From Escherichia coli 042 (GTDB taxonomy: Bacteria > Pseudomonadota > Gammaproteobacteria > Enterobacterales > Enterobacteriaceae), in NCBI RefSeq assembly GCF_000027125.1, contig NC_017626.1: a stretch of 64,000 bases of DNA; one strand, given 5' to 3'. A program made the translations under genes and the position numbers. The notes below the pieces were generated by a model, which saw nothing but the letters and a program-made list of their open reading frames with translations, did no database searches and was not told the DNA's origin. This document shows, in pieces, positions 6,054-25,982 of this stretch; position 1 is the stretch's first letter, and each line of letters begins with the position of its first letter.

Positions 6054-6077
6054 CGTGTACATAGAGGTGTACATAAT
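6054..6077. repeat. Left boundary direct repeat (candidate att / integrase-binding site)
   Basis: cgtgtacatagaggtgtacataat; recurs at 25959..25982 with 2 mismatches; further tgtacat half-sites at about 6085-6106. Confidence 0.5.
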
Positions 6078-6134
6078 GACTTTCATGTACATTGCTTTAT
6101 GTACACACCCATATTCGATATTCAGGTATTCGCA

Positions 6135-7394
6135 ATGCCAAAACTCACAGATATGCAGATCCGCGCATGGATAAAGGCGGGAGACAGATTTGATGGCAAG
6201 GCAGACGGCAACGGCCTTTATATTTGCTACCCAAAAAACTACACAGTCCCGTTCTGGCGATTCCGCTATAAGCTCGCAGGAAAGCAGCGGGCTATGGTTA
6301 TAGGCTCTTACTCCGAACTGTCACTATCAAAAGCCAGAGAAACAGCAAAAGAGCTGTCAGCCAGAGTTGCTCTTGGCTATGACGTAGCAGCAGAGAAACA
6401 GGAACGAAAAGCTGAAGCACTGGCAAAAATGGAGGCTGAGAAAAACGCCATGTGCGTTTCAGATCTGGCCGCCGAATACTTCGAGCGCCAGATACTTCCA
6501 AGATGGAAACATCCCGATATCCTTCGCCGGAGAATTGATAAGGATATTAACCCCTGCATTGGGCATATGAAGGTGGAGGACGTTAAGCCACGCCACATTG
6601 ACGACATGTTGAAAGGTATCGTTGACCGAGGAGCACCAACGATAGCAACAGATGTATTACGCTGGACACGCCGTATCTTTGACTATGGGATAAAACGCCA
6701 CGCTCTGGAGATAAACCCTTGTTCAGCGTTTGAAGTATCTGATGCTGGTGGTAAAGAGGTTTCCCGCGACCGTTGGCTAACTCGCGATGAGCTTATCAGG
6801 CTATTCGAAGCTATGCGCACCGCAAAAGGATTCAGCCGCCAGAACGAACTGACATTTAAGCTATTGCTGGCACTATGCGTTCGTAAGATGGAGTTATGCG
6901 CCGCACGATGGGAAGAGTTTGATTTAGATGGTGCGGTATGGCATTTGCCGGAAGAACGCAGCAAAAACGGAGACCCTATTGATATACCTCTACCTTCCCC
7001 AGCCGTTGAATGGTTGAGAGAGCTACACACCTTTTCATGTAATAGCGCATGGGTGCTTCCAGCCAGGAAGATGCAAAACAGAATGATCCCACATATTCAG
7101 GAAAGCACTTTGCCCGTAGCACTGGCTAAGGTTCGCGCCGAAATACCGGATGTGCCTAATTTCACGATTCACGACTTCCGACGCACCGCACGTACTCATT
7201 TAGCAGCGTTGGGTGTTGATCCTGTCGTGGCGGAACGATGCCTCAATCATCGCATTAAGGGCGTAGAGGGGATTTATAACCGCCATCAGTATTTTGATGA
7301 GCGTAAAGCAGCACTGGCACAGTGGGCTGATCTGCTGGTGGCACTGGAAAGCGGAAAAGACCACAACGTAACGCCTCTCAGAAGGGCGAACTAA
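6135..7394 (+). CDS. Tyrosine recombinase, P4-type integrase
   Basis: ORF 6051..7394; start placed at MPKLTDMQIRAWIKAGDRFDGKADGNGLY (typical P4-int N-terminal arm-binding domain); C-terminal catalytic region HDFRRTARTHL ... NHRIKGVEGIYNRH. Confidence 0.8.
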   Translation: MPKLTDMQIRAWIKAGDRFDGKADGNGLYICYPKNYTVPFWRFRYKLAGKQRAMVIGSYSELSLSKARETAKELSARVALGYDVAAEKQERKAEALAKMEAEKNAMCVSDLAAEYFERQILPRWKHPDILRRRIDKDINPCIGHMKVEDVKPRHIDDMLKGIVDRGAPTIATDVLRWTRRIFDYGIKRHALEINPCSAFEVSDAGGKEVSRDRWLTRDELIRLFEAMRTAKGFSRQNELTFKLLLALCVRKMELCAARWEEFDLDGAVWHLPEERSKNGDPIDIPLPSPAVEWLRELHTFSCNSAWVLPARKMQNRMIPHIQESTLPVALAKVRAEIPDVPNFTIHDFRRTARTHLAALGVDPVVAERCLNHRIKGVEGIYNRHQYFDERKAALAQWADLLVALESGKDHNVTPLRRAN

Positions 7395-7489
7395 CTGAAT
7401 AGATTGAGCCTAGCTCGACGGGGCGAAAAGCGGGAAGCCTTACCGCCTGGCTCAATCACAAAATAAGGCGCAGCGTAAAAGGTGACGCA

Positions 7490-8335
7490 ATGAAAAAACT
7501 ACCACCAAATCTCTTTTTCCGACTTAATAGAGCAGCAAATTTATTAGAAATAGAAGTCGATGATCTTCTACTTATGGGAGTATCAGGCTCTATATTTTTG
7601 AGCACAATAATTCACCAGTATGAAGGCGTACTCTATCAAGCGGGAAACTTGCCACCAGACCACGGCAGCAAAGACATAGAAAACTTATTATTTGGTTCTA
7701 TTATTTCTACTAGAGAAGATACCGAAAGATATCTAAATGAAGGTGTTTTCGATGGTATGAAGTGCTTAGCAAGTGGATTATGGCACGTTCCTAGTGATTT
7801 CATTGCTTCCCTTGCAGGGGTTAAGAGAGCCCCTGACATTCCACTCATATTCTCACCAGCATATATAAAAAAAGAACTAGATATCACATCAGGACGTTAC
7901 TTTTTCTACGATTTTCGCGAACATGATACCACCGTATCGTCTGTGGAAGATTTGTATATATCAAGACCGTGGGTTGAATATATAGCTGAAAGCATGGATA
8001 AAAATCAGCCAATACCCAGCATACTCCATTTGGGTTCACACGATCTTTATGAAAAGGAATTTAAAAACATAGAGCATGGAAATAGAGCACGACATAGCCT
8101 GAACCGTGAGAATAGCATTATGGCGTTGATTTATGTGAAACGGCACTATCCGGAAGAGTGCAAAGGGAAAAACGGGAAAGAAACCAACGAAGCGTGGGCA
8201 AACGCTACGATAGACCACTGGCCACATGTGGGTGGCGATTATGATGAACCATCTACAGATTATTTAAAGAAGATCATATCTGACATGGACAGATTGCCGG
8301 AAAAACGTACCACGGCAGGAAAGAAGAAATCATGA
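7490..8335 (+). CDS. Hypothetical protein, AT-rich orphan cargo gene next to the integrase
   Basis: 281-aa ORF; visibly AT-rich codon usage compared with flanking genes (not computed); no family recognised. Confidence 0.55.
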   Translation: MKKLPPNLFFRLNRAANLLEIEVDDLLLMGVSGSIFLSTIIHQYEGVLYQAGNLPPDHGSKDIENLLFGSIISTREDTERYLNEGVFDGMKCLASGLWHVPSDFIASLAGVKRAPDIPLIFSPAYIKKELDITSGRYFFYDFREHDTTVSSVEDLYISRPWVEYIAESMDKNQPIPSILHLGSHDLYEKEFKNIEHGNRARHSLNRENSIMALIYVKRHYPEECKGKNGKETNEAWANATIDHWPHVGGDYDEPSTDYLKKIISDMDRLPEKRTTAGKKKS

Positions 8336-8447
8336 TAATAAAATTTAGTATCGTGACAATAAAATTTACTGTAATTCACTTTTGAGCATGCACACCATTA
8401 AATACCCGTAACGAAGCAACAACTATCGCTAAGAGGTTACGGGAAGC

Positions 8448-24266: not shown

Positions 24267-24728
24267 TCACCCGTGCCTTAGAGTTTCATAATTCATAACT
24301 GCTATAGTGATCTCCAGCTTAGTCGTTTCAAGTATTTCTTCACATAAGACCAGATCATGAATGATGTTTTTGAGTAGCTCCTTATCGATTGCTCCATCAG
24401 CCACCCAAACTGCGATGTTTTCCATTTCTCGCACAAAAAGTTGTACACAATGGCCAAAACCATTTATCTCAAGAAAGTATGTTGAAAGGGCGATGCTTGA
24501 TCTTTTATTTCCGTCACTAAAAGCATGGAATTTATTGATTGCAAAGAACAAGTGACTTAGTTTGTCTACAAACCCGGGGTAATACCAGTCGTTTTGGATA
24601 TGCTCAAGGGCACTCTCCAGTACCCCTTGGTCTCTGATTCCGTGTAAGCCGCCTGTTTTCTCAATGATCCAATCATGAACCCGAATGGCGTGTTCAATAT
24701 CAAAATAATTGAATTGTATATCGTCCAT
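24267..24728 (-). CDS. Fic/Doc-family protein (Doc-type toxin-like)
   Basis: 153 aa; motif HAFSDGNKRSS fits the Fic/Doc core Hx[FA]xDGNKR. Confidence 0.7.
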   Translation of the reverse strand: MDDIQFNYFDIEHAIRVHDWIIEKTGGLHGIRDQGVLESALEHIQNDWYYPGFVDKLSHLFFAINKFHAFSDGNKRSSIALSTYFLEINGFGHCVQLFVREMENIAVWVADGAIDKELLKNIIHDLVLCEEILETTKLEITIAVMNYETLRHG

Positions 24729-24736
24729 TGATCCCC

Positions 24737-25792
24737 CTATCGGTCTTTTAGTCTTTTGAACACTTCTAGGGTTTCTGGATCGTTCAGGCGTTCTTCAAGT
24801 GATTTACTTTTCTCACCCAAGAAACGTTCAAAGTCTCCTTCAGGTACAGCTCGCACATATGCTTCCAGTTTTTCATGTAAAGCATCGCGAAAACATAAGT
24901 CTCGGCTTGCCATTTTCGTTCGCACATCAACCAACATTGGTTCATATAGAGGATGTTTTTCCATAGTGGTTAATATGGCTTCAGCTTCTTTGTATGTGAG
25001 TTTCCTACCTATCTGGAGTGACTTTTGTTTTATCTCATGAGCCAAACCAGCTTCGAAACTGGCAATCAGCGTCAACACTTCAGAGTACATAGTGTCACGT
25101 ATTTTATCGTGCTGATGGAGTTTTAATACGCTTCTGTACTCATTGGCATTTTCATGGAAAATGCTTTGATAAATCGCATTTGTTAGTTTTCCAAACTTCC
25201 AGCCATTGGCATCAACATATTCATTGAGGGCGTCAGTAAATTGCTTTCTGTAACTCTCTTCTTTAAAGGAGGCAACTAAGTAATCTTCGTCACGTTGGTT
25301 GATGAATTTCGTGTGACCACCGGCTCGTTCAGCAAGCGTATCAATCACTATATCTAACAGTCTAGTGCGAATTATTTTGGCTTGCTCGCTTTCGACAAGT
25401 AGCATTGCAAGGTTTAATACGGCTCTAAACTTAAACACTCCCAGCACTGAAGTCTTGGTACCCTCATTAATGAGGGCACCATCAGCTACTTCCTTGAATT
25501 CTTTTAGATTTTTACCTCTCAAAATGATGTAGCCATTGTTCTTCAGCTCATCCAAGTTGTTAGCTATATACCTCTCAATGGTCGCATCACTTACATCAAA
25601 CAGATCTACCAGTTGATTCTTGGTAAAAACTCTTTCTCCATCGAACTCAACTCCGCCAAGAGCAAGGTGTTTTTCAGCATGTCGGAGTGCATAAGAGTTA
25701 TTCAAAATATTTTGTCTGTCATGAGCAGAGGTTGTTAAATCTTTAGCCATGTTAACACCTATAAAGACGCAATAACGTGTATACGATAACAT
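24737..25792 (-). CDS. RhuM-family virulence-associated protein
   Basis: 351 aa; immediately upstream of and co-directional with the Doc-like gene (8-nt gap); family assignment from recalled RhuM similarity. Confidence 0.55.
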   Translation of the reverse strand: MLSYTRYCVFIGVNMAKDLTTSAHDRQNILNNSYALRHAEKHLALGGVEFDGERVFTKNQLVDLFDVSDATIERYIANNLDELKNNGYIILRGKNLKEFKEVADGALINEGTKTSVLGVFKFRAVLNLAMLLVESEQAKIIRTRLLDIVIDTLAERAGGHTKFINQRDEDYLVASFKEESYRKQFTDALNEYVDANGWKFGKLTNAIYQSIFHENANEYRSVLKLHQHDKIRDTMYSEVLTLIASFEAGLAHEIKQKSLQIGRKLTYKEAEAILTTMEKHPLYEPMLVDVRTKMASRDLCFRDALHEKLEAYVRAVPEGDFERFLGEKSKSLEERLNDPETLEVFKRLKDR

Positions 25793-25958
25793 TGTTAATG
25801 CCAGTATGGGTAAGTGAACTTTTAGTCTGATTCATGCTGGTTTAGGATGGGGGTCTGAAAAACCGAATCTGGTACTATAACTATCTACATACCGACAATT
25901 TCTTACTGAGCAAACAGTGCTCGATAAATGCTCAATGATTGATAGCACCAGAAAAAAC

Positions 25959-25982
25959 CGTGTACATAAGGGTGTACATAAT
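25959..25982. repeat. Right boundary direct repeat of island 1
   Basis: cgtgtacataagggtgtacataat; 22 of 24 identical to 6054..6077. Confidence 0.5.

Follow-up and report, generated by a model that had tools for sequence, protein, structure and literature searches.

Among described elements, the closest relative of the island of about 20 kb that separates yicC (5083-5946) from dinD (26267-27103; an open reading frame (ORF) of 278 amino acids (aa)) in Escherichia coli 042 (NC_017626.1) is EcCIMP1. Positions given below are those of the 64-kb stretch of DNA that was analyzed, referred to as the window, unless another locus is named by its L number. EcCIMP1 is a phage-inducible chromosomal island (PICI) of 19,963 bp at a tRNA-Thr gene of E. 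coli MP1, and its helper is the Lederbergvirus vB_EcoP_Kapi1 (Pick, Stadel & Raivio, ISME J 2025, PMC11773190). Circularization and excision of EcCIMP1 depend on Kapi1 and increase after mitomycin C treatment; the same phage transduces it, int and alpA are both required, and alpA is needed for excision (PMC11773190). EcCIMP1 also adds to superinfection immunity against Kapi1, with no known defense system found there, and the integrase varies within its family (PMC11773190). SatelliteFinder would rate EcCIMP1 only as a 'Type C' PICI (Pick et al., PMC11773190). It is phylogenetically far from two other PICIs, EcCICFT073 and EcCIEDL933 (PMC6092414), and its packaging module is without similarity to theirs (PMC11773190).

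Comparison with EcCIMP1 indicated that the island between yicC and dinD is very probably a phage satellite in largely intact form, namely an EcCIMP1-family PICI located at the 3' end of yicC. As the family has already been described (PMC11773190), the island is a new member with a new integrase, attachment (att) site and cargo, and not a new kind of element. The two elements agreed in architecture and size (19,963 vs. 20,117 bp). They were 98.2% identical in DNA over 9.3 kb (8641-17938), from an ORF of 143 aa to the homolog of P22 gp7, and 97.5% identical over 1.9 kb (21748-23647), a segment comprising a region of repeated motifs, alpA_1 and the second of two iteron sets. At the protein level, identity was 98.6-100% for the 143-aa ORF, AntA, the Icd-like protein, the primase, an ORF of 53 aa and alpA_1. 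Both elements carried int and then alpA at one end and, towards the other end, alpA_1 on the opposite strand and a gene of the PerC family, and the 'DNA transfer' and DUF2824 genes downstream of the EcCIMP1 primase corresponded to homologs of P22 gp14, gp7, gp20 and gp16 in the island.

The differences from EcCIMP1 were equally distinct. The att site was the yicC 3' end, with a 21-bp core, and not tRNA-Thr (TCCTATTATC) as in EcCIMP1; because the integrase varies within the family, integration at tRNA-Thr is probably not one of its defining features. For gp16 over its full length and for gp20 in its C-terminal part, the two elements had unrelated alleles, the gene after gp16 encoded a protein with four transmembrane (TM) segments where EcCIMP1 has a lipoprotein, and the island held an additional 281-aa ORF and a Doc/PDC-M59 gene pair.

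Set against the general features of PICIs (roughly 10-20 kb), the size, int, alpA, primase and specific att site were all present, and capsid, terminase and lysis genes were absent. A search of the island for terminase, portal, coat, tail, lysis and CI/Cro genes returned none, leaving the 14-7-20-16 block as the only one of its kind. Since gp7, gp20 and gp16 are virion proteins in P22-like phages, their presence in the EcCIMP1 family is unexpected under a strict 'no structural genes' definition of PICIs, and in this the family differs from EcCICFT073 and EcCIEDL933, with which the island shares the order int, alpA, primase, the PerC-like accessory genes, and AlpA as the master regulator of the family (as summarized in PMC11773190). 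Likenesses to P4 were a P4/CP4-type integrase, AlpA, an immunity RNA of the C4/CI family with an icd-like ORF, and a primase-helicase followed by iterons, with a second iteron set at a distance. The two iteron sets resemble ori and crr of P4. On the other side, the helicase part of the primase was of the DUF927 type, podovirus ejection genes were present, the helper of the family is a P22-like and not a P2-like phage, and neither PHROGs nor NCBIfam yielded psu, delta, sid or epsilon among the 25 ORFs. There was no tRNA gene in 4000-28000. A first description of the window, made from its letters alone and called here the original prediction, had rightly placed the island outside any tRNA gene and noted that psu, delta and sid were missing. 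By its gene content, the island is not a P4-like satellite.

The genes yicC and dinD are neighbors in most E. coli, as the original prediction had stated: a query with the joined flanks found them adjacent in, e.g., C600 and 118UI, and the uninterrupted, empty junction was present in at least 4192 of 5426 complete E. coli genomes. In 118UI and C600 this junction read ...CAGATCCAGAACATTGAATAA|CTCGTAACGCC, with the yicC stop codon directly abutting the dinD upstream region. In the window, the insert began directly 3' of yicC CAGATCCA (5926-5933) and finished at a second CAGATCCA (26043-26050). Alignment thus placed the true element at about 5934-26050, with 20,117 bp between the two cores; the integrative island of 20 kb that had been predicted was real, but its ends were not at 6054-25982.

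The att core is, on these alignments, the last 21 nucleotides (nt) of yicC, with the crossover inside a CAGATYCA(GAA) block, and attP and attB matched at 19 of its 21 positions. The attL core (5926-5946, + strand) consisted of the crossover block CAGATCCA (5926-5933) followed by GAATATCGAATAA, as defined by the empty-site alignment, a pair of O157:H7 strains and contigs carrying attP. The segment GAATATCGAATAA was contributed by the island and reproduced the yicC 3' end, stop codon included, with synonymous changes. In the near-clonal O157:H7 pair, one strain being empty and the other carrying a related element, yicC was identical over 534 nt up to ...GAGCAGATTCA and different beyond, and in the occupied strain it was island-derived beyond ...CAGATTCA. 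This point of divergence implies that the final 13 nt of the attL copy of yicC are island-derived and near-synonymous. The island also supplied a replacement yicC terminator, read from the sequence as a hairpin with a T-run (5986-6009, + strand), while the native terminator, GCCGCC...GCGGCATTTTT, was displaced to the right side of the island. Together these comparisons show integration by a P4/CP4-type tyrosine integrase at the 21-bp core of yicC, bringing in a synonymous gene end and a terminator.

At the right end, attR (26043-26057, + strand) was made up of the core CAGATCCA followed by AGAATAA, which is what remains of the displaced yicC 3' end and is 6 nt shorter than the original. The attR of the island in ISHS7 was ...CTCTACAAACAGATTCA-GAACATTGAATAA-CTCGTAAC, in which the displaced native yicC end was intact in the form CAGATTCAGAACATTGAATAA. 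A crossover at the TAA stop codon, a 'right-register' model prompted by the shortened attR, was ruled out by the O157:H7 pair, the intact attR of ISHS7 and exact matches to attP. Joining the left part of attR to the right part of attL predicted attP as the 37-mer CTCTACAAACAGATYCAGAATATCGAATAAGCTATCA, with the junction CTCTACAAACAGATCCAGAATATCGAATAAGC. The exact 37-mer was found in three public contigs (MAVC01000003.1, CYGL01000416.1 and OESB01002961.1). In each, the right end of the island (PerC region and right TGTACA repeats) was fused to its left end (terminator, left repeats and int), and the contigs consisted of island DNA alone, circularly permuted and without chromosomal flanks. The Logan contig ERR975302_11 (L078; 17,333 bp) contained an entire yicC-type relative in the same state, i.e., circularly permuted, with attP and without chromosomal flanks; an overlap of about 30 nt between its end and start was inferred by mapping all but its last 758 nt onto the related locus L081. 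This points to an element that was free in that sample, as a circle or a concatemer.

Several points weigh against a satellite that is still mobile and shares the helper of EcCIMP1. The excision scar expected from attL and attR of the window copy was found in none of the 5426 complete genomes, the best matches being normal attB sites 6 nt longer. The attP junction was not found among the viral contigs of IMG/VR, and of 57 iteron-bearing viral contigs in that database only one included an att region, in the integrated form. The attP contigs could also stem from tandem arrays. The attR of the window copy was short by 6 nt on the B' side beside the core, which could impair excision. In EcCIMP1 itself, transduction was inefficient, and Kapi1-like prophages occurred in only 2 of 21 EcCIMP1 strains (PMC11773190). 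Finally, because the integrase and AlpA diverge from those of EcCIMP1 (29 and 36% identity, respectively), the inducing signal and the helper range may differ.

The same observations could be taken to mean that the window copy is a locked-in, non-excisable satellite remnant, kept as an island with defense and exclusion genes. This would fit the loss of 6 nt in attR, the lack of an excision scar and the truncated gp16 carried by several relatives. It would also fit a comparison of nine attR sequences (the window, U15A (L001), L006, L012, L014-L017 and ISHS7), eight of which were changed at the spot beside the core: six had deletions of 4-12 nt, two (U15A and L015) had a different, dinD-less flank, and only ISHS7 was intact. 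We nevertheless consider a locked-in remnant unlikely, as the core genes of the window copy were all intact, the core CAGATCCA was the same in its attL and attR, and attP forms of the same integrase type exist. Moreover, in U15A the segment 6054-25982 was 100% identical to the window between flanks that were only 96-97% identical and with another right-hand neighbor, dinD being missing. Full identity of this segment between divergent flanks argues for recent horizontal transfer.

Some features of the right-hand side were seen in passing. The bases directly 3' of the CAGATYCA core in attR, on its chromosomal side, were a hotspot of change. In U15A (L001 22930-23082 vs. window 25983-27220), about 1.16 kb including dinD was replaced by about 77 bp, with yicG directly after, and 2014C-3338 (L015) had the same dinD-less arrangement.

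The ejection genes lay downstream of the primase gene. A segment at 16342-16452 (+ strand) comprised a terminator hairpin, a TATAAT and a LexA-like box, CTGTTGTTTTATACAG (16437-16452), which ended 15 nt before a conserved ORF of 53 aa (16468-16629, + strand; 100% identical to its EcCIMP1 counterpart) that opens the operon. Only two matches to CTGT-N8-ACAG were present in the window, this box and the dinD box. The LexA-like box was identical in seven out of seven islands, including one with different downstream genes. A scan of 15850-16700 for sigma-70 consensus promoters returned none, the TATAAT with a weak -35 being visible by eye only. The EcCIMP1 paper makes no mention of LexA (PMC11773190).

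The 53-aa ORF was followed on the + strand by homologs of P22 gp14 (16646-17107), gp7 (17101-17778), gp20 (17778-19199) and gp16 (19199-21304), all identified by PHROG matches (E = 1e-66 to 1e-179), full length and intact. The succession gp14-gp7-gp20-gp16 and then a reverse-strand membrane gene was that of the P22 late operon, and both the order 14-7-20-16-sieA and the gene families were those of the P22-like phages P22, Sf6, HK620 and Kapi1; in the island, the module was preceded by the replication region of the satellite and a LexA-like box. The relationships of the four proteins were mosaic. The gp14 and gp7 homologs were 99% identical to those of EcCIMP1 and 83 and 57% identical, respectively, to those of Kapi1, and gp20 resembled other alleles over the N-terminal ∼200 residues only. 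No similarity was detectable between gp16 and its counterparts in EcCIMP1 or Kapi1, but residues 69-701 were 93.5% identical to the gp16 encoded by a complete P22-like prophage in an isolate from a fox. The ratio of non-synonymous to synonymous substitution rates (dN/dS) of the ejection genes was 0.17-0.28, both between two satellite copies and between satellite and phage, and the primase genes of those two islands differed at 1.7% of synonymous sites. These ratios and the mosaic relationships indicate that purifying selection acts on the ejection module and that satellites and phages exchange it. A literature search found no paper that frames satellites as carriers of P22 ejection proteins.

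Downstream of the ejection genes, about 1 kb of conserved non-coding DNA contained three direct copies of a motif of about 20 nt, ATTTYGNGACMAGTACGCRCGCG (21854-22169, + strand), and a fourth copy lay at 24167-24196 (+ strand). The motif occurred four times in the window, always in the island and on the + strand (at 21867, 21920, 22153 and 24180). It was present in two to four copies in all 10 islands with ejection genes (10/10) and absent from two related islands without them. A weight matrix built from 19 distinct copies and run over the Kapi1 genome (39.4 kb) had its top site, of 23.3 bits, at 18871-18900 on the + strand, which is the late-operon strand, within terS, the gene for the small terminase subunit. 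The next sites scored 15.8 and 7.0 bits, and as controls the 44 kb of chromosome in the window peaked at 6.4 bits and a prophage with a different TerS DNA-binding domain at 9.9 bits. The 15.8-bit site was located at 28827-28856 on the minus strand of Kapi1, within the gp7 gene and opposite to it. Kapi1 TerS was identical to Sf6 gp1, and the terS site spanned codons D55-K62, including that for the DNA-binding residue K59. The packaging (pac) site of Sf6 was reportedly mapped by Leavitt et al. in 2013 to the stretch of gene 1 coding for the DNA-binding domain. Similarity to terS was confined to the ∼20 nt, with no wider terS homology around the motif, and a tblastn search for a TerS gene or relic in the island with Sf6-type TerS gave only noise. 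The motif ATTTYGNGACMAGTACGCRCGCG is therefore offered as a candidate pac mimic, a lead and not a result, the match having been found post hoc. The island (20.1 kb) and EcCIMP1 (20.0 kb) were each about half the size of the Kapi1 genome.

Taken together, these features may be read as a satellite that is packaged by way of two to four terS-mimic copies, places its own ejection proteins in the particles and expresses them from an operon behind a conserved LexA-like operator. We put this combined reading forward tentatively, as possible but somewhat doubtful.

The gene that follows gp16 (21323-21742, minus strand) encoded a 139-aa membrane protein with four TM segments, as predicted from hydropathy, at the sieA position of P22. 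It is a candidate exclusion gene. Its identification as SieA itself was rejected, as neither PHROG nor Pfam gave a match and RYPxEA was absent from every frame (the conserved SieA motif being FnRYPnEAnnFNK). In relatives, a SieA-like protein with an NRYPGEA motif directly followed gp16, and in EcCIMP1 a lipoprotein was found there, so that the slot after gp16 looks like a swap site for exclusion-type genes. The slot was also located in two relatives at L081 13562-14176 and L010 11749-12447. SieA exclusion acts on gp16 and gp20, and escape maps to their C-terminal regions (PMC10461980). The C-terminal parts of gp20 and gp16 were the ones that varied among the islands, coinciding with the regions of SieA escape, and a functional tie between the ejection genes and SieA-type exclusion may be inferred from this.

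It could be argued from this tie that the ejection genes and the membrane protein are mainly an anti-phage or superinfection-exclusion module, for instance one that poisons or blocks the DNA-delivery conduit of P22-like phages. The targets of SieA, the SieA-like genes after gp16 in relatives, the superinfection immunity that EcCIMP1 confers against Kapi1 with no known defense system, and the candidate PDC-M59 pair of the window copy would all agree with such a role. Other features fit incorporation into particles instead: gp14 is included in the block, the N-terminal ∼200 residues of gp20 are conserved, and the ejection genes co-occurred with the candidate packaging motif in every island that carried them. 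In P22, gp14 is an assembly factor and not part of the virion. A mainly exclusionary module is thus rather improbable, although exclusion and particle roles are mutually compatible.

The original prediction had taken a pair of 24-bp direct repeats as the att sites of a P4-type composite island. These repeats exist as described, CGTGTACATAGAGGTGTACATAAT at 6054-6077 and CGTGTACATAAGGGTGTACATAAT at 25959-25982 matching at 22 of 24 positions, and they stand symmetrically near both ends of an element whose integrase is of the P4/CP4 type. They were, however, inset by 121 bp from the left junction and 61 bp from the right one, and alignment of the window junctions with the empty junctions of 118UI, C600 and O157:H7 F8952 found no copy of the 24-mer in any of the three. 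The original prediction had itself named this outcome as one that would speak against the repeats as att sites, and it rules out the 24-mer as the att core. Island DNA also extended beyond the 24-mers, by 108 bp on the left and 68-75 bp on the right; the attP contigs held both repeat sets on one molecule, flanking the CAGATYCA core; and the island lacked psu, delta, sid and a P4-family primase. A P4-type island delimited by these repeats is accordingly very improbable. The repeats instead belonged to clusters of TGTACA-type direct repeats, with four on the P' arm, including the left 24-mer (6054-6107, + strand; overlapping the int promoter and upstream region and absent from empty sites), and two on the P arm, which are the right 24-mer (25959-25982, + strand; from repeat analysis and the attP contigs). 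Such clusters were found at equal offsets in other yicC islands, and beside an integrase of 78% identity in O157:H7 the repeats turned into GTGTACCCA and GTGTACACA, a regularity that is not attributable to chance. They are probably arm-type integrase sites, because they keep their position, vary with the integrase type and accompany an integrase with an Arm-DNA-bind_3 domain. The dinD LexA box, CTGTATATAAACACAG, was at 26218-26233, outside the right repeat, as had been stated.

A chance fusion of a decayed P22-like prophage fragment with an unrelated P4-like element, which the copied gene order of the P22 late operon might suggest, has next to no probability, given that the junctions between primase, iterons, LexA-like box, small ORF and ejection genes were seen again at two different att sites and across many genomes, that no other phage structural, lysis or immunity genes are present, that the module is under purifying selection and that it lies inside the excised form.

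The remaining parts of the island also followed the architecture of a satellite of the EcCIMP1 family. The tyrosine integrase (6135-7394, + strand; 419 aa) gave a full-length match to the PHROG integrase family and had the Pfam domains Arm-DNA-bind_3, Phage_int_M and Phage_integrase, which is the P4/CP4 architecture. The residues HxxR (346-349), H372 and Y381 were all present, so the integrase that had been predicted at the left end is intact and not a pseudogene. It was followed by an int-alpA RNA motif (7403-7469, + strand; Rfam RF02996, 60.6 bits vs. a gathering score of 35.8) and by a variable slot, occupied here by an ORF of 281 aa (7490-8335, + strand) that matched nothing in PHROG, NCBIfam, PADLOC or Pfam. 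In other loci (L006, L007, L008, L017 and L078) the slot held ORFs of 321, 293 or 216 aa or a DUF6387 protein, and in EcCIMP1 it was empty. An AlpA-family helix-turn-helix (HTH) protein (8448-8651, + strand; PHROG excisionase/regulator) occupied the position of EcCIMP1 alpA and, by analogy with it, is likely to be the master activator and excision factor. Next came the 143-aa ORF, an AntA/AntB antirepressor (9095-9928) and a DUF4222 protein (9921-10103), all on the + strand (8651-10103) and identified by ORF calls and PHROG, with 98.6% aa identity to their EcCIMP1 counterparts.

Two structured RNAs followed. The first was isrK-like (10478-10555, + strand; Rfam RF01394, 67.1 bits vs. a gathering score of 50), and the second was a full-length C4-family antisense, or immunity, RNA (10618-10705, + strand; Rfam RF01695, 79.5 bits vs. 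45). Two single-stranded parts of the C4 RNA were complementary to TTGGCGT and TCGAATGG, and these targets were found as two pairs, one inside the isrK-like RNA (TTGGCGT at 10503-10509 and TCGAATGG at 10519-10526) and one (10710-10716 and 10741-10749) directly upstream of the Icd-like ORF (10759-10953; the whole at 10710-10953, + strand). The Icd-like protein was 100% identical to the EcCIMP1 protein that RefSeq calls Icd-like. Complementarity of C4 to two target pairs supports antisense control of the operon from icd to primase. The two-target arrangement is known from the c4 system of P1 and P7, and the island shared with their immI a C4-family RNA and two a/b target pairs, the second just before icd; it differed in that the antirepressor gene was upstream of C4 and that the operon after icd was one of replication. 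The AlpA, antirepressor, C4-like RNA, icd-like ORF and iterons that had been predicted were thus all confirmed. The same DNA contained a 355-aa ORF (10097-11164), which RefSeq calls an 'ash family protein' and in which Pfam places Phage_ASH at residues 124-232 (10466-10792). This stretch exactly overlay the isrK-like and C4 RNAs, the Icd-like ORF was in another frame, and the 355-aa ORF was broken in EcCIMP1. The 'Ash' protein family may, in light of this overlap, largely be the translation of conserved RNA genes.

Six small ORFs (11157-13140, + strand) belonged to the conserved core and were kept in all family members examined. They led to a primase-helicase of 918 aa (13127-15883, + strand), 99.7% identical to the EcCIMP1 protein, which matched the PHROG DNA primase family (E = 2.5e-178) and the Pfam domains Zn_Ribbon_Prim, Toprim_3 and DUF927. 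In the original prediction it had been called an alpha-like primase, which was right for the N-terminal Zn-ribbon and Toprim domains and not for the helicase part, and the P4-family primase model of NCBIfam did not match the protein; the related island L007 did carry a 'P4 family' primase. Adjoining the primase gene, iteron set I consisted of six copies of GTTGGTTCA, three of them in tandem (15902-16023, + strand), and is the presumed origin. Iteron set II was in inverted orientation (23408-23537, minus strand), and an inverted repeat of 55 nt with 98% complementarity connected the two (15902-15956 vs. 23483-23537). The 55-nt repeat reached past the iterons and bracketed the ejection-gene segment of 7.5 kb.

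At the right end, a second AlpA-family HTH gene, alpA_1 (22706-22891, minus strand), was 100% identical over 52 aa to EcCIMP1 alpA_1, which is dispensable for mobilization (PMC11773190). A PerC/ANR-like regulator (23567-23854, + strand) was 52% identical to EcCIMP1_025. Gene comparisons across the family show that gp14, gp7, gp20, gp16, alpA_1, iteron set II and the PerC-like gene are parts of a conserved family architecture, so that what had been seen as unrelated cargo is for the most part shared with EcCIMP1. An exception was a Doc/Fic-type toxin (24267-24728) with a 351-aa partner (24737-25792), both on the minus strand (24267-25792), which is not found in EcCIMP1. PADLOC assigned the two to PDC-M59B/A (E = 8e-30 and 6e-105), the toxin also scored above the cutoff of NCBIfam DOC_P1, and they are a candidate defense pair, PDC-M59. 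No known defense system was assigned by PADLOC to the 281-, 143-, 200-, 139-, 111- and 132-aa ORFs, the PerC-like ORF or gp16. With its candidate pair, the window copy would be another example of a satellite with defense cargo.

Searches of the 5426 complete E. coli genomes showed that the family is widespread. An 8-kb core (≥80% coverage) was present in 351 genomes, the ejection-module allele of the window in 180 and a near-complete island in 32, and yicC was followed by this integrase family in 481. Members of the EcCIMP1 family occupied two att sites, yicC and thrW, and were modular, with four, two or no ejection genes and three primase types. Other elements were noted at these positions or nearby. 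In some O157:H7 strains, a different, PICI-like element of 16 kb was found at the yicC site (ECP17-46; L012 20148-36090), with int, AlpA, AntA/B, an icd-like gene, another primase type, SSB, a ProQ/FinO-family protein, three PerC-like genes and a Q antiterminator. A second integrative element in the window, at tRNA-Sec (selC) (44606-44700 and 51196-51472), had its own isrK, c4-a1b1 target and C4 RNA, and the 64 kb thus contained two satellites with like antisense immunity.

The life cycle that these data and the experiments on EcCIMP1 would predict is as follows. In the quiescent state, the C4 antisense RNA would pair with its targets in the isrK-like leader and upstream of the icd-like ORF, the first gene of the replication operon, an arrangement as in P1, P7 and P4 immunity. 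A P22-like helper prophage entering lytic growth would turn on alpA, as the shared EcCIMP1 core and the published experiments suggest, and by analogy the island would then excise, circularize and replicate by means of its primase-helicase and the two inverted iteron sets, to be transferred inside helper particles. The island-encoded gp14, gp7, gp20 and gp16 would probably be built into the carrier particles. More speculatively, the LexA-like operator might control the ejection operon, the 20-nt motif might mimic the Sf6-type pac region, and two copies of 20.1 kb might fill one headful of about 40 kb.

The window copy thus represents a common, mostly unannotated type of island that is tied to an experimentally proven satellite of P22-like phages, and the yicC 3' end emerges as a recurrent integration site. 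It also provides leads on questions that the EcCIMP1 paper left open, i.e., packaging (the terS-like motif), the role of the ejection and envelope proteins, and SOS/LexA control. If the tentative reading of the packaging motif, ejection proteins and operator is true, the variable C-termini of gp20 and gp16 could admit the satellite to cells that carry a helper prophage, the LexA-like operator would tie the ejection operon to the same SOS signal that induces the helper, and satellites of the EcCIMP1 family would exploit P22-like phages by a route that has not been described.

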